Positions 7,653-15,803 of a stretch of 64,000 nucleotides of DNA are shown piece by piece; position 1 is the first letter of the stretch; every line of letters starts with the position of its first letter. The stretch is from the IMG/VR virus record IMGVR_UViG_3300027126_000006; one strand, 5' to 3'. The notes beneath the pieces were generated by a model. It saw only the letters and a program-made list of their open reading frames with translations, did not search any database and was not told where the DNA came from. The DNA is from a virus. Position numbers and translations under genes: made by a program.

Positions 7653-7994
7653 TTATGCACCCTGTGTTATTTGGGGTGTGATTGTTACAATACCTTCAAT
7701 GATACGCTTTCTATATCCTTCAACAGTGTGATTAATTTCCACGTCATATAACCATCGTCCGGCCGGAATCACTTCCGATTGAGATGCGGTAAGGGATAAT
7801 TTAAGTTGACCAGCCACTGCGTTTATAATTGTTGCAGTGAAGTTGTATGCTACTGATGAGCTGAAGGACTTCCTCATTTGTGAAGTGGCCGCGTAATTGG
7901 TCAGATCGAGGGGAGTGCCGTCTGATGATGTTACAGTGATTATAGTTGCGAAGTCAGATCCTTGATCTACAAACAGATTGCTAATAGCAGCCAC
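7653..7994 (-). CDS. Conserved small virion structural protein of T4-like aquatic phages (BppU N-terminal-like)
   Basis: Pattern 'NLFVDQGSDF...PLDLTNY....QMRK...GRWLYDVEI....KRIIEG.VTITP'; GTG start with GGAG RBS. Confidence 0.7.
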   Translation of the reverse strand: MAAISNLFVDQGSDFATIITVTSSDGTPLDLTNYAATSQMRKSFSSSVAYNFTATIINAVAGQLKLSLTASQSEVIPAGRWLYDVEINHTVEGYRKRIIEGIVTITPQITQGA

Positions 7995-8031
7995 AACGGT
8001 ATCTCCTATACAGATTTGTATTTAATCTCAA

Positions 8032-8060
8032 TTGCATATATAATTGATCAATGTTATATT
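8032..8060 (+). promoter_or_regulatory. Possible sigma70 promoter for the glycosyltransferase gene (TTGCAT-17-TATATT)
   Basis: Near-consensus hexamers with 17-bp spacing, upstream of the ATG at 8079. Confidence 0.4.
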
Positions 8061-8064
8061 TATA
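8057..8064 (-). promoter_or_regulatory. T4-type late promoter TATAAATA for the leftward fibre operon
   Basis: Exact motif about 60 nt upstream of the 7994 start. Confidence 0.65.
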
Positions 8065-8078
8065 CTATTGGAATCTAC

Positions 8079-11000
8079 ATGATCTCAATCGCAATTATCG
8101 ACGTTATTGGTTTGACTTATGATGGTAGCACTCTTCAAAAAAGAGGCCTTGGCGGCTCTGAATCTGCTGTCATTCTCATGGCCAAAGAACTCCACAATCT
8201 AGGGTTCAAAGTAACTGTTTTCAACAACTGCATCGACAGAGAAGCCTCTCCGGGTATCTATGATGGGGTCGAATACATCGACTTAAGTCAAATTGAAACT
8301 CTAGAGGATCCGAAGTTCGACGTTGTTATCGGATCACGAACAGTTGCTCCATTCCTCCCACCACACATTTGGCCTAATTGGAGCTACCGAGTTGACATCC
8401 ATGAAAGGATTCGAAGACATGCTAAACTAAAGGTTCTTTGGCTCCATGATACGTTTTGTGCTGGTGATGAACTTCTTGAAGACCTAGTAGTAAACGGTCA
8501 CATTGACGAAATCTTCACACTATCTGATTTCCACACTTCGTATGTGACAAACTGTGATCACGGACGCAAACGGAACTTTGAGGTCCTTAAACATAAGGTA
8601 TTTATCACTCGCAATGGTATCACCAAGTACCATGATGAGGTCGATATTGCCTCCAAAGATCCCAATCTCTTTGTATATAATGCATCCGTCACTAAAGGGA
8701 TGATTCCTCTCGTCGAACGAATCTGGCCTCAATTTAAGGCGCGAGTTCCTGATGCTCAATTGAAGATCATCGGTGGATATTATAGATTCCGAGAGAATCT
8801 TGAACCAGATGAACAAGAAAAGAAGTGGCGATTGCTCGCCAACGATCCATCCAATCCTGAAAAAGGAATTGAGTTCACTGGGATCATTAAGCAAAGTGAA
8901 ATTGCAGATATCCTTGCCAAAGCTTCTTACATGCTTTATCCAGGAGCATTCCCTGAGACGTTTGGCATCTCAACTCTCGAATCACTTGCATACAATACAC
9001 CGTTAATCACTTCTAGGTTTGGTGCCTTGGAGGAGACTGCTTTTTCAGAAGCATGTTATCTACTCGATTATCCAATTGAGCCTAATGGTCTATTCCCCCA
9101 CATCAATGTTGACAGTCAAGCATCTAAGTTCACGGAGATGGCAGTTGCAGCATATCACAATAAGTACTTGCATCAGCAGAAGATGTATATGTGTTCCGCT
9201 GTAAAGGACATTTGTACATGGGATACGGTTGCGCTACAATGGAAACAACACTTCTTCAGAAAGCTTGGTCTATACCTCTCGAGGGACGAGTATAGGAAGG
9301 TTACCAAAATTAATTCTCGCGTAAAACAGGTGTTTGGCCGAAGGTTTTCCAACACCGAAGATGTATACATTCCTCGAAGCACTCAACAAAAGATTGTTGT
9401 TGTGACTCCTGCCTATAATGCTGAGCAGTATATCACCAAGTGTATCGAATCAGTAGTATCACAGGATTATGATAACTGGGAAATGTATATTATTGATGAT
9501 TGTTCCACGGACAATACGTTTAGTGTAGCAAGTCAAGCAGCGATGTTATCGGATAAAATCACTGTGATCAGGAATCCGATGAATATGGGAGCAGTGTATA
9601 ATCACGTGACTACTATCAAACAGTTTTGTGATCCCGATGATATTGTAATGTTAATTGATGGTGACGATGCTCTTGTTAACGACAATCAAATCTTCCAGTT
9701 TTACAACAACCTATATGATGGATCAACAGAATTCTCTTACGGTTCTTGTTGGTCGATGATTGATAAGATTCCTTTAGTAGCACAACACTATCCGAAACGC
9801 ATCAAAGAAACAAAATCATATCGCGGTCACGTATTCAACTGGAACATGCCTTACACACACCTTAGAACCTTCCAAGCGAAGTTTCTATTGCAGGTTGATG
9901 AAGATGAGTTCAAAGATGAGAATGGTGCATGGTATAAAGCTGGAGGTGATGGCGCTGTATTCTATTCTGTGATTGAGCAAGTAGATCCAGATAAGATTAA
10001 AGTTGTGCAGGACATTGTTTACTTGTATAATGACATGAGTCCAATTAACGACTATAAAGTAAATGGTGCTGAGCAAACACGAAATGCCAATCGAATTAGG
10101 TCTTCAAACCGCGTGAAGGATAAGTTTTCTGTTGTGATTCCAACAATGTGGCGGGCAATGGATCTAATGCCAGAGTTGCTTGAAAGTCTCGTTGCCCATG
10201 AACTTGTAGGCGAAGTGATCATCATCAACAATGAAGTAAACAATACACCGACATTGAGTGTGTTGAGGCACCCTAAGATTGTAATGATTGATCAGGAAAC
10301 CAATATCATGGTCAACCCTGCATGGAATCTTGGAGTGGAGATTGCCAAATACAATAAGATGTGTTTCTGTAATGATGATATTGTATTTGATGTTAGGTTG
10401 TTTAATAAAATTTACGATCGAATTACACCAGAATATGGACCGCATGGGATCATATGGGGTAAAGAAGAATTTAACCAACCTCCCACAACTGATGGATCAA
10501 TCGATTTTATCGAATGGAAGCCTGGAGATGTAATCCACTGCTTTGGACAACTCCACTTCCAACATAAAGATAGCTGGATACCCATTCACTCCGATCTAAA
10601 GATGTTTTACGGTGATGATTGGATCTTCCACAACGCACTATCTCGAAACTTAACGCCTTGGTTGATCTACAACATCAACTTCAAGTCACGTAACTCTGCT
10701 ACAGGTCTATGTGAAGATATTGTTCCTCTCGTCAATGAACGATATAAGTTAGAAACCCCAATTTATCAGAACTGGGCATCACAACATGTCGCTAACCAAA
10801 CTAATAGTAGGCTCACTATGAAAAAAATCTTGATTGCTATTCCAACAAACAAGTACGTTGAAACAACGACGATGAAGGCAGTATATGATCTTGAGGTGCC
10901 AGAAGGATACACAACAGACCTTCAGTTCTTCTACGGCTATCAAGTAGATCAAATCCGTAATCTGATTGCTGATTGGGCTAAGCACTATGACTATTTGTTT

Positions 11001-12113
11001 TCAGTAGATTCTGACATTGCATTCCCTTCCGACACCTTAAAGCGACTCCTATCTCATAACAAAGACATTGTGTCAGGGTTGTACATTCAACGTAAACCTG
11101 GTCAGCACATTCTTGAGCTGTATAGGAATGGAACAAACGTACCTTACCAAGACATTGAAGGTCAAGGTCTAGTGGAAATTGACGGATGTGGTTTTGGATG
11201 TGTTCTGATTAACTCCAACGTGATTCGTGCAATGGAGTATCCACACTTCGTCTACAAGTCAGCAATCGATCACAGTAATACTCTTTCAGAAGATGTATAC
11301 TTTTGTTTGAAGGCAAAAGAGAAGGGATTCAAACTATATGCAGATACAGACGTTCGCTGCGATCACTATGGTACCACAGCATTGAAAGTTCAATCACAAA
11401 AGCCTCCTGTGATAGAGCAACCTAAAACAAACAGAGATATTGATTTTCTACTTAACCTCAGCAACACTAGGATGATTCCCGCCGAACACGTGAACTATCT
11501 CTTTAGGATGAGAGATAGCGGATCCCAACCTCGCGTGATATACGATATCGGTGCTTGTGTACTACATTGGACGCGCGAGGCTATCAACGCATGGCCCCAC
11601 GCCAAGTTTATTGCTTTTGATGCCATGGAAGAATCCAAAGCAGTATTCGATCATTTTGGATTCGATAGCCACATTGGTGTGTTGAGCGATAGAGATGATG
11701 ACTATGTAACATTCTACAAGAACGTCACTTCACCTGGAGGTAATTCTTACTACAAAGAAAGTACGCAATACTCTCCTGCTGCCGATCAGATGTACGGTGA
11801 CTTTAATGCCCATATGCTTAGGACATTTACTCTCGATAGTATTGTTGAAGCAAAAGGGTTTCCACTCCCTGATCTAATTAAGATCGATGTGCAGGGTGCT
11901 GAACTAGATGTACTTAAAGGAGCGACGAAAACACTAGCATCATGTAAAGATATTATTGTAGAGCTTCAGTTGGTTGAATACAATGAAGGAGCTCCTTCTT
12001 ACATTGAGGTGATTACATACCTCAAGTCACAAGGATTTGAGCTGGTAGGGTCTTCATACTTCTCGAAGAATGGAGACACAGATGCCGACTTCCATTTTAC
12101 AAAGGTGAAGTGA
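8079..12113 (+). CDS. Five-domain glycosyltransferase/methyltransferase: GT4 (GT-B) + three GT2-like (GT-A) + FkbM methyltransferase
   Basis: GT4: LGGSE and ETFGISTLE (EX7E). GT2: VVTPAYNAE...IIDDCSTD...IDGDD. Further GT-A units: VVIPTMWR...NPAWNLG...CNDD, and IAIPT...VDSD...GFGCVLI...SEDVYFC. FkbM: YDIGA...LIKIDVQGAELDVLKG. True start is likely ATG 8079, since the ORF-track start overlaps the divergent gene. Confidence 0.9.
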   Translation: MISIAIIDVIGLTYDGSTLQKRGLGGSESAVILMAKELHNLGFKVTVFNNCIDREASPGIYDGVEYIDLSQIETLEDPKFDVVIGSRTVAPFLPPHIWPNWSYRVDIHERIRRHAKLKVLWLHDTFCAGDELLEDLVVNGHIDEIFTLSDFHTSYVTNCDHGRKRNFEVLKHKVFITRNGITKYHDEVDIASKDPNLFVYNASVTKGMIPLVERIWPQFKARVPDAQLKIIGGYYRFRENLEPDEQEKKWRLLANDPSNPEKGIEFTGIIKQSEIADILAKASYMLYPGAFPETFGISTLESLAYNTPLITSRFGALEETAFSEACYLLDYPIEPNGLFPHINVDSQASKFTEMAVAAYHNKYLHQQKMYMCSAVKDICTWDTVALQWKQHFFRKLGLYLSRDEYRKVTKINSRVKQVFGRRFSNTEDVYIPRSTQQKIVVVTPAYNAEQYITKCIESVVSQDYDNWEMYIIDDCSTDNTFSVASQAAMLSDKITVIRNPMNMGAVYNHVTTIKQFCDPDDIVMLIDGDDALVNDNQIFQFYNNLYDGSTEFSYGSCWSMIDKIPLVAQHYPKRIKETKSYRGHVFNWNMPYTHLRTFQAKFLLQVDEDEFKDENGAWYKAGGDGAVFYSVIEQVDPDKIKVVQDIVYLYNDMSPINDYKVNGAEQTRNANRIRSSNRVKDKFSVVIPTMWRAMDLMPELLESLVAHELVGEVIIINNEVNNTPTLSVLRHPKIVMIDQETNIMVNPAWNLGVEIAKYNKMCFCNDDIVFDVRLFNKIYDRITPEYGPHGIIWGKEEFNQPPTTDGSIDFIEWKPGDVIHCFGQLHFQHKDSWIPIHSDLKMFYGDDWIFHNALSRNLTPWLIYNINFKSRNSATGLCEDIVPLVNERYKLETPIYQNWASQHVANQTNSRLTMKKILIAIPTNKYVETTTMKAVYDLEVPEGYTTDLQFFYGYQVDQIRNLIADWAKHYDYLFSVDSDIAFPSDTLKRLLSHNKDIVSGLYIQRKPGQHILELYRNGTNVPYQDIEGQGLVEIDGCGFGCVLINSNVIRAMEYPHFVYKSAIDHSNTLSEDVYFCLKAKEKGFKLYADTDVRCDHYGTTALKVQSQKPPVIEQPKTNRDIDFLLNLSNTRMIPAEHVNYLFRMRDSGSQPRVIYDIGACVLHWTREAINAWPHAKFIAFDAMEESKAVFDHFGFDSHIGVLSDRDDDYVTFYKNVTSPGGNSYYKESTQYSPAADQMYGDFNAHMLRTFTLDSIVEAKGFPLPDLIKIDVQGAELDVLKGATKTLASCKDIIVELQLVEYNEGAPSYIEVITYLKSQGFELVGSSYFSKNGDTDADFHFTKVK

Positions 12114-12700
12114 TGTACATATATGATTCGCAGGTGTGGGATAAAGTAGATGCTAATGATTTGTGGATCTACGATAAGCTGATTCTTTGTAGGAAGTTAG
12201 GCTATGTGTGTGGTCCTGCTGGGGTACCTCTTCCAAAACCAGGAACATACATTGTAAAACCTATCACCAACATTCTAGGAATGGGCGTTGGTTCTTACTT
12301 CCATGAATTTACTGATACTGACACCGACTTCCTTGCACCAGGAACATTTTGGATGGAAGTGTTTACAGGACCGCATGTTAGCGTTGACGTGGTCGACGGC
12401 AAAACGGATATCGTATATGAAGGTATTCGAGATGGTCTCCAACGGTTTAGTCGTTGGACCAAACTAGACATCGAACCACAGCATGAGCCGTTTGTAATTG
12501 AGATGTCGAAGAAGTATGGCGTTGTCAACTATGAGACGATCGGCGGTAAGATCATCGAAGTCCATCTCAGAGCCAATCCTGACTGGCATAAGCACAAGGC
12601 AAGGGAACTAATCCCTGTTTGGGAAGGCGAGGAGATCCCTAAAGAAAATTTCGTATCAGATCCAGATATTGGAAGACTTGGGTTTGTAGTAGTCAGATAA
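12110..12700 (+). CDS. ATP-grasp-like protein
   Basis: Pattern 'YDKL.L...LGY..GPAG...YIVKPITN..GMG.G...FWME.F.G.HVSVD...N.E.IGGKIIEVHLR.NPD'; overlaps the glycosyltransferase stop codon. Confidence 0.55.
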   Translation: MMYIYDSQVWDKVDANDLWIYDKLILCRKLGYVCGPAGVPLPKPGTYIVKPITNILGMGVGSYFHEFTDTDTDFLAPGTFWMEVFTGPHVSVDVVDGKTDIVYEGIRDGLQRFSRWTKLDIEPQHEPFVIEMSKKYGVVNYETIGGKIIEVHLRANPDWHKHKARELIPVWEGEEIPKENFVSDPDIGRLGFVVVR

Positions 12701-13565
12701 CTGGCTTAAGAGATACTACATAGAACACTGGATAGGGGTGGCCGTTCTTGATTGGCTGAACGGTAACTCTGTATGATGGGTCGCGTGGTAGAGTCTGATC
12801 GAAGATATTACCATCCTTAACTACTTCCCACACCACATCATATATCTCGGGATTGTGTAGTATCTCTTTAACGTGCTTACCAATTGCATCTTTGTAGTTT
12901 GATATGTGGAAATACTTTAATGATTCATCGTTGCAGAAGAACACACATGAGTTTTTGTCTATAATGAAAATTGGATGGCTTGCGGAGTTCATCGCAATGT
13001 AACAAGCCTTAGTTCTTTCATGTTCAAGATATGGCTCTGTAATATCGCGACCTACGACGATGAGCTCTTTTGGTTCACCGGCATCATATGTTGGTGTCTT
13101 AATTACATCAAAGTATCTTGTGTTACCTGATGCATCCTTTATTATCTCGATCGTTCTATTTGAATGGCCTCGTCGCCATGCTTCAGTATCTGTCTCAACA
13201 CACACCTCTAATGTATCTTTGAGATGGGGTTTGATTTTACCTATATCCTCGTCTGTTTTGTTATAGTAGTCATCGAGGATAATATCAAACAACTTCTGTC
13301 CATATATGTTCAGAGTTTTCCAGCGGCCGCTGCTGTCTTTAATTAGCAGCAGGTCATCAATCGCATCGATGGTAGTATAAAACCTCTGCGTGTAGCTGGA
13401 TAGTTCCTTTTCAATATTCTGAGATGCAATACTAGCAACCTCAGACAACTCTGCTGTTGCTCGCTTCAACATGGTCAGCCCTGTATCGAGTTCGTGGGCG
13501 AACAATGACGGCATATCTTGATCAAACGCAACACTAATCTTACTTCTACCAGAAAACCAACCCAT
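12693..13565 (-). CDS. Tandem PAS-domain protein with no output domain
   Basis: PAS1: 'IDAIDDLLLIKDSSGRWKTLN...NKTD...YFDVIKTPTYD...LIVVGRDITE' (PAC DIT motif). PAS2: 'MNSASHPIFIIDKNSCVFFCN...IGKHVKEIL'. N-terminal helical/coiled segment. Confidence 0.8.
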   Translation of the reverse strand: MGWFSGRSKISVAFDQDMPSLFAHELDTGLTMLKRATAELSEVASIASQNIEKELSSYTQRFYTTIDAIDDLLLIKDSSGRWKTLNIYGQKLFDIILDDYYNKTDEDIGKIKPHLKDTLEVCVETDTEAWRRGHSNRTIEIIKDASGNTRYFDVIKTPTYDAGEPKELIVVGRDITEPYLEHERTKACYIAMNSASHPIFIIDKNSCVFFCNDESLKYFHISNYKDAIGKHVKEILHNPEIYDVVWEVVKDGNIFDQTLPRDPSYRVTVQPIKNGHPYPVFYVVSLKPVI

Positions 13566-13576
13566 AATAAACTCTC

Positions 13577-13855
13577 TTATTTTTTAGCGGCTTGGAAGGA
13601 AGTAAGAACGATCTTGATTTCGTGCAGGGCATGAATAAGATCAATATTACCCTGATGGTATCGTTCAATGATTTGACGAGTGGCCTCGAGTTCATGGTCT
13701 TTAGCTCCGACGTACTTGTCGGTTATCTCGTTCATTTCCTTTAGTATATGTTTGCGGTCCCATATCAGGGCACCAATGATGGCAACCAGGATTACAACAA
13801 TCGCTGAGTTACCACCTTGGACTAAAAACTCGACAAACAGCTTAGCGAGATCCAT
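13577..13855 (-). CDS. Small single-TM membrane protein with coiled-coil tail (holin-like architecture)
   Basis: Hydrophobic 'AIVVILVAIIGALIW' followed by a charged helical C-terminus; ends 11 nt upstream of the PAS gene. Confidence 0.65.
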   Translation of the reverse strand: MDLAKLFVEFLVQGGNSAIVVILVAIIGALIWDRKHILKEMNEITDKYVGAKDHELEATRQIIERYHQGNIDLIHALHEIKIVLTSFQAAKK

Positions 13856-13930
13856 CTTAGATCCTTATAGGTCTTTTTGTATTTGTTATGACAAGGATCA
13901 ATCGGAGCCAAAGATATGATTCAGATGCTT

Positions 13931-13938
13931 TATTTATT
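13931..13938 (-). promoter_or_regulatory. Late-promoter variant AATAAATA upstream of the TM-PAS pair
   Basis: One mismatch to TATAAATA. The same variant occurs upstream of structural genes at 21704, 35339 and 47847. Confidence 0.4.
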
Positions 13939-13999: not shown

Positions 14000-14281
14000 T
14001 TATAGCTTCGTTTCTGCTGCACGGGCTTCTATTTCCATGGGATTGTTCTTGTACCCGTGCCGCAGATTAAGCCAGAGGTACTGAACATAAAACCGGATCA
14101 CACCGAGCCTTTGCGCCTGCTCCCAGTGCGCCTGTTCGTGACGAATTAGACGCTGGTCATTGATACGCTCGCTGAGAATAAAAATACCAAACGGTGGCAG
14201 TGTGATTCCAGCGTACTTGGTTGTACGGAGCCACCATCTAATTAGCCCAGATGCGCGGATTACCTTGGGAATTGTATCCAT
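14000..14281 (-). CDS. Small HExxH zinc-metallopeptidase-like protein (DUF4157-like)
   Basis: 'LIRHEQAHWEQ...Y...Y.......GY.NNPMEIEAR'; likely start ATG 14281 with GAGG RBS. Confidence 0.65.
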   Translation of the reverse strand: MDTIPKVIRASGLIRWWLRTTKYAGITLPPFGIFILSERINDQRLIRHEQAHWEQAQRLGVIRFYVQYLWLNLRHGYKNNPMEIEARAAETKL

Positions 14282-14360
14282 AATGCGAGACCTCGTGTGT
14301 TTATTGTTATACAATGGGTTCCCAGTCACTAACTAGTTACTGCATGGACTGACACAACTT

Positions 14361-14390
14361 ATTATATCACAAATAAGTAATGTTTGTCGA
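14361..14390 (-). promoter_or_regulatory. Possible sigma70 promoter with extended -10 (TCGACA-18-TATAAT, TGn)
   Basis: TGATATAAT overlaps the stop codon of the upstream gene. Confidence 0.45.
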
Positions 14391-15803
14391 AAATGTAGAA
14401 GTAACCTGTGTTAGACTTGTAGTCACAATACTCAAAGTGGCTGTACTTGTAGTATTTACACCAGCAGAATCTGAATCTGTGAGTGTGCTTACTGTAGAAG
14501 ATCCAGACGCCGGGCCGTAAGTGAAGTTACCGAATGTTCCAGAGAAAGCTCCATTTATAGTTCCGTTTCCCGGCAACTTCGCAACTATCCAATCAGTGTT
14601 ACCAACTGTTTGAGTGTCTTGGTATCCTGCGATATATACATTCCCAAAACTGTCTATACCGACACTCGTTCCCGTATCCGATCCCGTTCCATCAAGTTGT
14701 CTAGACCACTGCCAAGTCCCAGATGAGTTAAATTTGACTAAAAAGAGCTTGTTAGTAGTAAAGCCATGAGTTCCTATGCAATAAATATTATTGGACGAAT
14801 CTATAGCCACTCCTGTAAAGTTGTCAACTGAACTTGACCCAATGGTTCTCTGCCATTGAATTACACCAGAAGAATCATACTTAGCTATGAATGCATCATT
14901 AGATCCAGCGCCTTGTGAAGAGGTGAAGCCCACAATATAAACGTTTCCAGAAGAATCAACTTCTACTGCCTGTCCATTATCTGTAGCGGTTCCGCCTAAG
15001 GAGCGTTGCCACTGTAACGCTCCAGAAGAATTGAACTTAGCGAGAAGTATATTCTGGATACCAGATCCTGATGGCGGAGAAATTCCACTTACGTACACAT
15101 TTCCAGAAGAATCTACAGCAACATCACTAAATTGATTAGAGCTAATGGACCCAAACGTTACTTGCCATTGAAGAGTACCAGAAGAATCATACTTAGCTAT
15201 CAAAGCGTCGGTACCACCTGCACCTTGTGAGCTGGTTTGCCCTGCACAATAAATGTTGCTTGCTGAATCTATTACAATCCCGGAAAAACTTTCACCGCCC
15301 CCGCCGCTAAGCGAACGCTGCCATTGAAGAGTACCAGAGGAATCATACTTAGCTATCAACGTATCGGAGTTTATACCTAAAGTGGTTCCGACACAATATA
15401 CATTTCCTGAAGAATCTACAGCAACATCTTGAAAGTCTGTATAAACACTCGCCGATGTGCTTCCTAAAATGCGTTGCCATTGGATGACGCCAAATTCATT
15501 AAACTTGATTAAAAGAGCATTAGCAGAGCCGCCCGGGCCTTGCGAAGCGGTGGATCCCACAACATAAATGTTTCTAGACGAATCCACGACCAAGTAGTTA
15601 CCAAAATCATTATTGATCCCACCAACAGTGGCAATCCAGTAATTAGATTTACCATGAAGGTTGTTAAATCCAATGGCCCCGCTAGGAACACCAGCGAGCG
15701 CCCTAACAGGGGCATCATTAAGACTGGTCGCAGCAGTGGAATCACGCCCTATTTCGAGGTTGATTTGCGACATCGAAATTTCACCACTAGCTGGCAGTGT
15801 CAT
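14367..15803 (-). CDS. Fibre-tip/adhesin protein with beta-propeller repeats
   Basis: N-terminal 'MTLPASGEISMSQINLEIG' module, typical after fibre genes, then repeated 'VAVDSSGNVY..G......D.LIAKYDSSG.LQWQR' blades. Confidence 0.75.
   Translation of the reverse strand: MTLPASGEISMSQINLEIGRDSTAATSLNDAPVRALAGVPSGAIGFNNLHGKSNYWIATVGGINNDFGNYLVVDSSRNIYVVGSTASQGPGGSANALLIKFNEFGVIQWQRILGSTSASVYTDFQDVAVDSSGNVYCVGTTLGINSDTLIAKYDSSGTLQWQRSLSGGGGESFSGIVIDSASNIYCAGQTSSQGAGGTDALIAKYDSSGTLQWQVTFGSISSNQFSDVAVDSSGNVYVSGISPPSGSGIQNILLAKFNSSGALQWQRSLGGTATDNGQAVEVDSSGNVYIVGFTSSQGAGSNDAFIAKYDSSGVIQWQRTIGSSSVDNFTGVAIDSSNNIYCIGTHGFTTNKLFLVKFNSSGTWQWSRQLDGTGSDTGTSVGIDSFGNVYIAGYQDTQTVGNTDWIVAKLPGNGTINGAFSGTFGNFTYGPASGSSTVSTLTDSDSAGVNTTSTATLSIVTTSLTQVTSTFSTNITYL

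Follow-up and report, generated by a model that had tools for sequence, protein, structure and literature searches.

A T4-like phage carries, within the 64,000-nucleotide stretch of DNA analysed here (the window), two adjacent genes for a 92-aa single-pass membrane protein and a soluble 290-aa protein with two PAS domains and no output domain. We propose, with a probability that we put at about one half, that the pair is a phage-specific, bipartite, membrane-tethered sensor whose output passes through the membrane protein, with lysis timing as the leading candidate for that output. With the pair, the phage could probably make an event at the membrane, perhaps lysis, depend on the condition of its infected host. 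Phages are known to detect superinfection, as in T4 lysis inhibition, and quorum signals, as with VP882 VqmA and arbitrium; we know of no prior description of a dedicated PAS sensor inside the cell that is coupled to a membrane protein, and our search of the literature on phage PAS modules, antiholin-PAS, cyanophage PAS and the Sinorhizobium phage Phosso found no description of the pair. Since the pair is abundant, limited to phages within the collections searched, and modular, its constant chassis bearing between one and three PAS domains that can be swapped, and since it occurs in cultured Phosso, whose host Sinorhizobium meliloti is genetically tractable, the reading of host physiology by lytic phages late in infection, and its output, become directly testable. 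The pair also offers a compact two-part membrane sensor scaffold.

Table 1. Features of the two-gene locus and its surroundings (positions in the window; residues are those of the protein concerned)
Feature	Position	Strand	Remarks
113-aa gene	7653-7994	minus	directly after the PAS gene in 7 other loci
290-aa soluble PAS-PAS protein gene, no output domain	12693-13565	minus	
PAS2, residues 199-288	12702-12971	minus	shortened NifL/MmoS/Aer-like PAS
GRDITE motif, residues 172-177	13035-13052	minus	end of PAS1
PAS1, residues 72-174	13044-13352	minus	best-conserved domain
N-terminal helix, residues 20-68	13362-13508	minus	small-residue heptad stripe L33, L37, T40, A44, A47...
Intergenic spacer, 11 nt	13566-13576	minus	GAGAG Shine-Dalgarno-like motif before the PAS start codon
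92-aa single-pass membrane protein gene	13577-13855	minus	acidic N-tail, TM helix, helical heptad-repeat tail
YHQGN motif, residues 66-70	13646-13660	minus	nearly invariant; between two tail heptad runs
TM segment, residues 14-32	13760-13816	minus	invariant G14 and A18 (GxxxA spacing), then invariant R34
T4-type late-promoter-like motif AATAAATA	13931-13938	minus	75 nt upstream of the membrane-protein start codon
Sigma-70-like promoter TCGACA-18-TATAAT	14361-14390	minus	TG-extended, 11/12 matches; consensus match only

Firstly, we examined the layout of the locus and the membrane protein. The original prediction, read from the letters alone, had placed here a two-gene unit with an 11-nt gap, led by a 92-aa protein with one transmembrane (TM) segment and a coiled-coil tail. 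Both reading frames are present (Table 1), and the short spacer apparently couples the membrane-protein and PAS genes tightly. The best 19-residue hydropathy window of the membrane protein reaches 2.19 (the maximum in the PAS protein is 0.6) and coincides with the TM segment, while the remainder is predicted to be helical with a heptad pattern, both by fold prediction and by direct reading, in agreement with that description. The invariant columns of the TM region were read from alignments A3 and A5. Within the YHQGN motif, alignment A3 shows no variation at Y66, G69 or N70 and at least 90% conservation of H67; the counterpart of the motif is YYKGN in Phosso and YHRGN in a 415-kb contig. Throughout the family, the TM segment is flanked by acidic residues on its N side and basic residues on its C side, so that by the positive-inside rule we predict an N-out, C-in topology, with a periplasmic part of only ∼13–16 residues. 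The family comprises 206 clusters at 90% identity, nearly all of 91–108 aa and all unnamed.

Secondly, we analysed the 290-aa protein, which runs from a basic-aromatic N-terminus, found in about 30 of the 53 PAS-protein members, through a 49-residue helix, PAS1 and a linker helix to PAS2. Pfam assigned PAS_4 to residues 67–178 (E = 1.6e-10; 41.6 bits, cut-off 23.1) and PAS to residues 192–253 (E = 1.9e-11; 44.4 bits, cut-off 22.6). The AF2 model (pLDDT 90.3) consists of a helix (20–68), PAS1 (72–174), a helix (176–193) and PAS2 (199–288), both PAS folds being modelled at pLDDT 95–98. By these thresholds and folds, the protein belongs to the PAS superfamily (Pfam clan PAS_Fold); Foldseek matched the model to DosP, MmoS and FixL at E values of 1e-9 to 1e-12. 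Beyond the two PAS matches, Pfam at E ≤ 1 returned only overlapping PAS-clan models and a sub-threshold chance match to FBD (E = 0.21). Neither HisKA with HATPase_c nor GGDEF was found at E ≤ 1 in the 290-aa protein or in eight variants; by its domains it is neither a histidine kinase nor a diguanylate cyclase. Pfam and AF2 thus agree on what had been predicted, namely two PAS domains, the first ending in GRDITE, without a kinase, GGDEF or HTH domain.

Thirdly, we assessed how the two genes are kept together, reading the genomic context from 38 related loci and one GenBank phage. A PAS-only gene directly follows the membrane-protein relative in 22 of the 22 distinct loci with room downstream, the two genes overlapping by up to 4 nt (ATGA) or being separated by at most 24 nt; the pair that had been predicted is thus conserved across phages. 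Paired loci have a GC content of 30–58% and lie in T4-like structural regions, in 267-kb (complete) and 415-kb contigs and in the cultured 469-kb Phosso. Searched against 50,697 cultured phage records, the PAS protein gave no match by blastn or tblastn; with the membrane protein, Phosso was recovered as a weak match (E = 9e-3 and 7e-4), and the annotated neighbour there confirms the pair. Within the collections searched the pair is restricted to phages, and a single atypical locus, L031, has a PAS paralogue without a membrane partner. The number of PAS domains per protein is one, two or three, and the one-PAS variant, from the complete 267-kb phage genome, is exactly the N-terminal helix plus PAS1. 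In distant pairs the PAS proteins cannot be aligned pairwise; the family profile still matches them, mainly along the N-terminal helix, and the membrane protein retains G..A, WDR and YHxGN. Of the PAS protein, it is this helix, with L33 and A44 invariant, that is kept in all cases in which the membrane partner occurs. As far as these comparisons go, the membrane protein and the N-terminal helix are the constant parts, and the PAS domains vary and appear exchangeable. Synonymous sites are saturated; dN/dS is 0.05–0.2 in the membrane-protein gene and ∼0.3 in the PAS gene, and conservation is stronger in the membrane protein (76% identity, versus 42% in the PAS protein, between one pair of loci). 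Judged from the sequences, the pair is under purifying selection.

These data decide against an origin of the locus by decay, in which the PAS gene would be what is left of a bacterial sensor kinase or cyclase taken up by the phage, and the small upstream ORF would be there by chance. PAS1 does resemble PAS domains of bacterial multidomain proteins. However, long bacterial GGDEF/EAL and kinase proteins match PAS1 only, and the closest homologues are not full-length kinases, which would have spoken against the original prediction, but stand-alone proteins of ∼300 aa: about 45 clusters (50% identity) of 285–340-aa proteins align over residues 24–287, with the same length and both ends. Moreover, the sequence is kept although synonymous sites are saturated, and the upstream ORF belongs to the 206-cluster family, which had a PAS gene as its partner at every locus examined. 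A kinase remnant is therefore ruled out, and we give this origin next to no probability.

We propose the following arrangement for the membrane-tethered sensor. The 92-aa protein would sit in the inner membrane with its short acidic N-tail outside and a 60-residue helical tail in the cytoplasm, the putative GxxxA packing motif lying in its TM helix. The cytoplasmic 290-aa protein may dock on the membrane and on the partner's tail by means of its N-terminal peptide and 49-residue helix; PAS1 would read a cytoplasmic cue and pass the change via the helices to the membrane protein. The output of the PAS protein must be a protein contact, one that we infer. Because the membrane protein and the N-terminal helix alone are constant while the PAS domains vary, the regulated activity is most likely that of the membrane protein, and would be its own oligomeric state in the membrane. 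The foremost candidate for the consequence is a permeabilisation of the membrane late in infection, that is, a holin-type lysis timing coupled to host physiology. Folding of a read-through 'natural fusion' (locus L042, stops read as Q/W) gave a pTM of 0.61, with the tail as one long helix at pLDDT 65–71. The idea that the tail is a duplicate of the PAS N-terminal helix was rejected: hhalign found no homology between the two (probability 0.9%), a result that is mute on binding.

The same parts could instead serve as a decoy of host signalling, in which the membrane protein is no more than an anchor gathering the PAS protein at the inner membrane, where PAS1 heterodimerises with host PAS-GGDEF/EAL or PAS-kinase proteins, blocking or redirecting c-di-GMP or two-component signalling during infection. 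PAS domains commonly dimerise, and the PAS protein has no output domain. PAS1 is related to the PAS_4 domains that directly precede GGDEF/EAL or HisKA in bacteria: it is 27–36% identical to bacterial PAS_4 domains, shares with those of PAS_4-GGDEF(-EAL) proteins and PAS kinases the signature K-D-x-x-G-x-W...N...T-D-x-x-A-W...F-D-x-x-K-x-P...G-R-D-I-T-E, and nine of the ten PAS_4 relatives examined are followed immediately by GGDEF, alone or with EAL. Whereas the DIT(E) and following helix of these bacterial sensors enter GGDEF or HisKA, those of the phage protein enter a second PAS domain or the end of the protein. We nonetheless regard a decoy as unlikely, since the PAS domains vary whereas the anchor is conserved most strongly, opposite to the pattern expected if it were a simple anchor, and since the same membrane protein is found across phages of very different GC content, which probably have different hosts. 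One of the nine GGDEF proteins also has a histidine-kinase module, and the tenth case is a plain PAS histidine kinase. In favour of the membrane-tethered sensor, no histidine-kinase ATPase domain that might act as an output was found in the phage records searched, except for one ORF of a single record.

We then asked whether the membrane protein is a holin. It has general holin traits, being small, with one TM helix and a charged helical tail, and its feature neighbours in the Atlas are viral 'Holin' clusters (0.93, a score that according to the tool's note 4–10% of shuffled proteins also reach) and a Holin_BhlA cluster (0.90). It resembles BhlA-type and other single-TM holin-like proteins in size, in the N-terminal position of the TM helix and in its charged helical C-terminus (Atlas 0.90–0.93), but has no HMM match to Holin_BhlA or a holin PHROG and no adjacent endolysin. 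No holin family of Pfam or PHROGs matched any of 13 membrane-protein members at E ≤ 1, and the 19 neighbours of pairs scanned at eight loci, which are structural, tail-fibre or unassigned, include no lysis gene. The sole holin-like neighbour belongs to L031, the locus without a membrane partner, where a holin-like PG-binding membrane protein (phrog_962, E = 8e-6) is encoded two genes ahead of the PAS paralogue. T4-type holin T (PF11031) was absent from five pair-carrying phage records, which carries little weight as the control found PF11031 nowhere. Thus, of the holin-like gating that the original prediction had put forward, the conserved output-less PAS module stands, while the holin identity of the membrane protein finds neither a family match nor a lysis neighbour. 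Lysis is our leading guess, drawn from the architecture, the Atlas language-model lead, the late promoters and the one atypical locus. The fuller claim of a widespread, phage-only control, in which a holin-like protein would be gated on its cytoplasmic side by a PAS sensor with exchangeable inputs and killing timed to the metabolic or redox state, we hold very tentatively and consider rather doubtful.

T4 provides a precedent for such a gating. Holin T is likewise a late phage single-TM membrane protein whose activity is set by a small partner; the antiholin RIII binds the cytoplasmic domain of T (PMC11413866) and acts from the cytoplasm, RI being the periplasmic antiholin. T, however, is oriented N-in and exposes a large domain to the periplasm, the opposite of the N-out topology and cytoplasmic tail predicted for the 92-aa protein, and the two are unrelated in sequence; neither protein of the pair matched a PHROG for RI or RIII, and the likeness to these antiholins is a functional analogy only. 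The membrane protein also gave weak Rz-like PHROG matches (E = 5e-4 to 0.19), which are of the kind that TM plus coiled-coil composition gives. An i-spanin was rejected on account of the opposite predicted topology and of a partner that is a cytoplasmic PAS protein and not a lipoprotein.

We analysed the timing of expression from promoter-like motifs. The late-promoter variant reported earlier at 13931 is present. ATAAATA occurs 17 times in the window, equal to the chance count; 12 of these 17 copies, against an expected 6.5%, fall in the 120 nt that precede an ORF start on the same strand (binomial p = 2e-11), and NATAAATA is found 36–74 nt upstream of the homologous membrane-protein gene in nine other loci. 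This concentration at gene starts and the recurrence across loci take the motif beyond chance as a late-promoter signal. The sigma-70-like promoter further upstream precedes a 109-aa gene and could allow read-through into the pair, so strictly late expression is not certain. This promoter bears on a role in superinfection exclusion or in defence or counter-defence, whereby the complex would sense an infection signal and alter the envelope, for instance blocking DNA entry, in the way of Imm and Sp, small membrane proteins of T4, but supplemented with a sensor. Early expression from the sigma-70-like promoter would suit such a role, as would a small single-pass membrane protein whose two-gene cassette is self-contained and recurs in many unrelated genomic settings. 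The conserved NATAAATA directly upstream, however, points to late transcription, and the predicted periplasmic part is very short; we judge this role improbable.

Late transcription would suit virion morphogenesis, with the pair taking part in tail-fibre or baseplate assembly at the membrane and the PAS folds serving as scaffolds and not as sensors. At T4-like loci the pair has a late promoter in front of it and tail-fibre and baseplate genes around it, and a small tail-fibre-assembly-like gene follows it in seven loci. A relative of the corresponding 113-aa protein matches phrog_1084 and phrog_3304 (tail fibre assembly, E = 7e-7); in the window, an inverted glycosyltransferase/ATP-grasp operon (7962–12700, plus strand) separates the 113-aa gene from the PAS gene. 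In jumbo-phage contigs and in Phosso, however, the pair stands isolated, outside structural clusters, and PAS1 retains residues common to bacterial signalling PAS domains. We give morphogenesis a small probability and retain the membrane-tethered sensor as the preferred reading.

Finally, we compared this proposed sensor with known PAS systems. VqmA of vibriophage VP882, a PAS-HTH quorum-sensing receptor (PMC8284805), is likewise a phage-encoded PAS sensor reading a chemical cue, but its output is DNA binding and it lacks a membrane partner. Output-less short PAS/LOV proteins and the PAS domains of KCNH channels act, as proposed here, purely by protein contacts: in KCNH (eag/hERG), the membrane channel is modulated by a PAS domain that lies at the N-terminus and carries an N-cap helix. 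KCNH PAS domains are among the PDB matches of PAS2 (E = 6e-5 to 1e-2); the kingdom and the partner differ, and the resemblance is mechanistic only. In fold, the 290-aa protein resembles MmoS PAS-A/PAS-B (PDB 3EWK) in its tandem PAS-helix-PAS arrangement (Foldseek TM 0.73, normalised to 3EWK), and the PAS2 family profile matches 3ewk (6e-24), NifL PAS1 (2GJ3, 9QQ6; 5e-13 for 2gj3) and 8dik (8e-9). These PDB matches of PAS2 came from the profile search, a single-sequence PDB search giving none. MmoS and NifL bind FAD within kinase or regulator proteins, whereas the phage protein has no output domain. An FAD-binding PAS of the NifL PAS1/MmoS PAS-A/Aer type was downgraded, the flavin-contact positions being mostly absent from PAS2. 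Among E70, R80, W87 and N102, which we take to be the flavin contacts in NifL numbering and whose spacing agrees with the printed alignment, PAS2 keeps only the equivalent of W87. In the PAS2 family profile, hydrophobic or variable residues stand at E70 and R80, and PAS2 is short by 3 and ∼10 residues at the E-F loop and G-H hairpin bearing R80 and N102 in NifL. The N102 position is deleted together with the hairpin in the short PAS2 of this phage, while long-form relatives keep the Asn.

We found both genes of the proposed two-gene unit on the minus strand, separated by an 11-nt spacer that includes GAGAG. The 92-aa small protein holds a single strongly hydrophobic segment (residues 14–32, Kyte-Doolittle 2.19), and the remainder is predicted to be helical, with two heptad runs flanking YHQGN. 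The 290-aa PAS protein has no hydrophobic segment (Kyte-Doolittle maximum 0.6). Pfam places PAS_4 at residues 67–178 and PAS at 192–253, and finds no other domain in it except overlapping PAS-clan models and a sub-threshold chance match to FBD (E 0.21); kinase, GGDEF and HTH domains are absent, as had been stated. No PHROGs family matches either protein. The AlphaFold2 model of the PAS protein (pLDDT 90.3, with a 44-sequence family alignment as input) consists of a disordered N-terminus, a 49-residue helix (20–68, the N-helix), a first PAS domain (PAS1, 72–174) terminating in G172-R-D-I-T-E177, a linker helix (176–193) and a second PAS domain (PAS2, 199–288). ORF calls, Pfam, AlphaFold2 and hydropathy therefore bear out every descriptive statement of the original prediction: the 11-nt gap, the single transmembrane segment with its coiled-coil tail, and the helical segment followed by two PAS domains, the first ending in GRDITE.

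Coordinates of the gene pair, its putative promoters and the neighbouring or related features discussed in the text (window positions unless a locus or accession is named)
Feature	Location	Strand	Basis
Small-protein gene, 92 aa	13577–13855	minus	ORF call
PAS-protein gene, 290 aa	12693–13565	minus	ORF call
Late-promoter-like motif AATAAATA	75 nt upstream of small-protein gene	minus	motif match
Sigma-70-like site, TCGACA-18-TATAAT with TG	14390–14361	minus	11/12 consensus matches
Region with 109-aa protein (HExxH)	14000–14390		phrog_37302 and weak 'protease' PHROG matches
478-aa protein, seven SBBP beta-propeller repeats	14367–15803		Pfam E 3e-33
Counterpart of the ~112-aa gene	7653–7994	minus	
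Region with glycosyltransferase and ATP-grasp-like gene	7653–12700	plus (1383-aa gene)	
Phosso pair	L068 5001–6550 = PV764938.1 332586–334135		annotation and comparison
HDOD-type signalling protein	L053 3138–3929		by eye
434-aa protein with N-terminal PAS	L065 1471–2775		by eye (C-terminal region)

The pairing is strict. All eight IMG/VR loci with a full-length PAS relative encode a 92–96-aa single-TM homologue directly upstream of it, as do six metagenome loci. A profile of the small protein retrieved 21 viral loci, two of which end at a contig boundary with no room downstream, and each locus with room has a PAS-only gene next. Conservation across phages, by which the original prediction proposed to judge the pair, is thus complete among the distinct informative loci (22 of 22), where the two genes overlap by up to 4 nt or stand up to 24 nt apart. 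In the reverse direction one locus departs from the rule: L031, a 14.3-kb metagenome contig with two PAS paralogues and no recognisable small-protein homologue. Among its other products are a holin-like, PG-binding protein (phrog_962), further small coiled-coil proteins with a single TM segment, a periplasmic binding protein and, by eye, ThyX-like and tubulin/FtsZ-like proteins. The small-protein family comprises 206 clusters at 90% identity, nearly all of 91–108 aa; all are unnamed and lack a Pfam domain. One cultured phage, the 469-kb Sinorhizobium phage Phosso, carries the pair as an isolated two-gene unit. The two genes overlap by 1 nt and bear no annotation beyond 'hypothetical protein' (81 aa) and 'PAS domain S-box protein' (434 aa); the latter contains three PAS domains and lacks an output domain. 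This jumbo phage is a usable experimental system for the pair. Just upstream of the pair in L053, a locus with the three-PAS variant, lies a gene whose product by eye resembles an HDOD-type signalling protein and has no PHROG match. The 132.6-kb IMG/VR contig of locus L041, which carries the pair, also encodes (L065) a 434-aa protein with an N-terminal PAS domain and, by eye, a C-terminal region similar to the signalling domain of methyl-accepting chemotaxis proteins; the phage would then have a soluble protein of chemoreceptor type.

The original prediction had named descent from a full-length bacterial kinase, as a decaying fragment, as the reading that would overturn it. A word-indexed search returned 19 relatives of the PAS protein, all metagenomic and unnamed, of 289–335 aa and 33–44% identity over about 90% of the length. 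In an exhaustive search of 1.84 billion representatives, 35 proteins scored below 1e-30 and about 45 clusters of 285–340-aa proteins aligned with residues 24–287, while the long bacterial proteins among the matches covered PAS1 alone (residues 50–185). Across 185,579 genomes of bacteria and archaea, a scan yielded single-domain matches only, at 27–36% identity. Where computable, dN/dS lies at 0.05–0.2 in the small-protein gene and near 0.3 in the PAS gene, synonymous sites being mostly saturated. The closest relatives are thus stand-alone proteins of the same length and not kinases, the bacterial matches are confined to PAS1 and dN/dS is low, which refutes the decaying fragment.

Comparison across the family separates a constant from a variable part. 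The PAS protein exists in a one-PAS form of 190 aa, found on a complete 267-kb genome and consisting exactly of the N-helix and PAS1, in the two-PAS form of the window and in a three-PAS form. In the most distant pairs (on a 415-kb contig, GC 56%), the PAS protein cannot be aligned pairwise with that of the window and its N-terminal helix is still matched by the family profile; distant small proteins retain the invariant G14/A18 (GxxxA spacing), R34 and Y-H-x-G-N. The small protein changes more slowly than its partner (76% versus 42% identity in an example pair of loci). Throughout its family, the stretch before the TM helix carries acidic residues and no positive charge, and the C-flank begins W-D/E-R-K/R, so that the positive-inside rule predicts an N-out, C-in topology, which would place the helical tail in the cytoplasm alongside the PAS protein. 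About 30 of 53 PAS proteins start with a short basic-aromatic peptide (MGWFSGRSK, MFKWWKDLWK, MNWFGKKK), probably of the type found at membrane interfaces.

Because the pairing is strict, the coupling tight and the chassis constant with exchangeable PAS inputs, a split membrane-tethered sensor is the simplest account. The N-terminal helix of the PAS protein would serve to dock it on the small protein's cytoplasmic tail, and the PAS protein would regulate the small protein. The 'natural fusion' of the related locus L042, which consists of two in-frame genes read through stop codons and was folded with an unpaired alignment, gave pLDDT 89.5 and pTM 0.61, with the tail as one long helix at pLDDT 65–71; comparison of the tail with the N-helix revealed no homology. 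That the pair is a decoy for host signalling through PAS-GGDEF proteins or kinases would suit the ancestry of PAS1, since nine of ten bacterial relatives examined are PAS-GGDEF(-EAL) proteins, one of which also has a histidine-kinase module, and the remaining one is a PAS histidine kinase; but this reading fits poorly with an anchor that is the best-conserved part. Full-text literature searches returned no description of such a membrane-protein and PAS module. We class the pair as a sensor of PAS type that is specific to phages, lacks an enzymatic output and has its membrane anchor on a separate protein.

PAS1 is the conserved core of the domains: W82, N86 and P158 are invariant and D71, K76, W130, D153, K156, G172, R173 and T176 nearly so, and these residues are common to bacterial signalling PAS_4 domains. 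The folds closest to the whole protein are the tandem-PAS sensor modules DosP, MmoS (TM 0.73), FixL and NifL; similar predicted viral structures comprise PAS-containing histidine kinases of phages and several phage proteins that are short and PAS-only, all uncharacterised. The PAS2 family profile resembles the FAD-binding group (MmoS 3EWK, 6e-24; NifL 2GJ3, 5e-13; Aer 8DIK, 8e-9), but the positions equivalent to NifL E70 and R80 are not conserved in the family. Moreover, the window PAS2 is a short form that lacks three E-F loop residues and about ten residues of the G-H hairpin, including the Asn matching NifL N102, all retained in long-form relatives. For these reasons we did not adopt a flavin sensor for the window protein.

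The pair appears to have its own T4-type late promoter, a reading we accept since the motif is placed non-randomly and recurs. The overall frequency of ATAAATA in the window is that of chance (17 copies, 17.3 expected), whereas 12 of them are found no more than 120 nt ahead of an ORF start on their own strand (6.5% expected, p 2e-11), and NATAAATA stands 36–74 nt upstream of the homologous small-protein gene in nine other loci. The late-promoter variant originally noticed ahead of the pair is present. The placement of ATAAATA just ahead of gene starts on the coding strand also serves as a provisional late-promoter map of this phage. Read-through from the upstream sigma-70-like site may transcribe the pair earlier in infection.

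Lysis timing, suggested at the outset, is the likeliest single output of the sensor, at roughly one chance in four. The small protein is holin-like in its size, its one TM helix, its charged tail and its GxxxA motif, and these features count in favour, as do the late promoters. Its language-model neighbours are 'Holin' clusters of viruses (0.93) and one Holin_BhlA cluster (0.90), scores that serve as leads only. Also in favour is L031, the one locus with no small-protein homologue, where a PAS paralogue lies two genes behind the phrog_962 protein (E 8e-6). A T4-type holin T was found in none of five phage records with the pair, which speaks for a holin only weakly, as the control genomes gave no match either. 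For cytoplasmic control of a holin there is a counterpart in T4, where RIII is a cytoplasmic antiholin (PMC11413866). Several results count against a holin: thirteen members of the small-protein family gave no holin family match, Rz-like matches were compositional only, and 19 neighbours of pairs in eight loci included no lysis protein, the pair occurring in settings as varied as tail-fibre clusters and, in jumbo phages, isolated units. That the pair acts in superinfection exclusion or in assembly is possible, with little in support of either.

The surrounding genes are of T4-like myovirus type (gp5 hub/lysozyme, gp6, gp48-like tube cap, tail fibres), with gp6 just 35–38% identical to those of pelagimyophage HTVC008M, Methylophilales phage Melnitz and cyanomyophages. 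The HExxH protein encoded just upstream of the pair, behind the sigma-70-like promoter, is not kept beside it in other loci; the SBBP protein matches large 'virion structural protein' PHROGs. In seven other loci a gene of about 112 aa directly follows the PAS gene, and in the window a plus-strand 1383-aa multi-glycosyltransferase and an ATP-grasp-like gene part the two. Since this gene is split off in the window and the related loci L006–L008 have the glycosyltransferase upstream of the pair and on its strand, the glycosylation operon has the look of a mobile insertion next to the pair.
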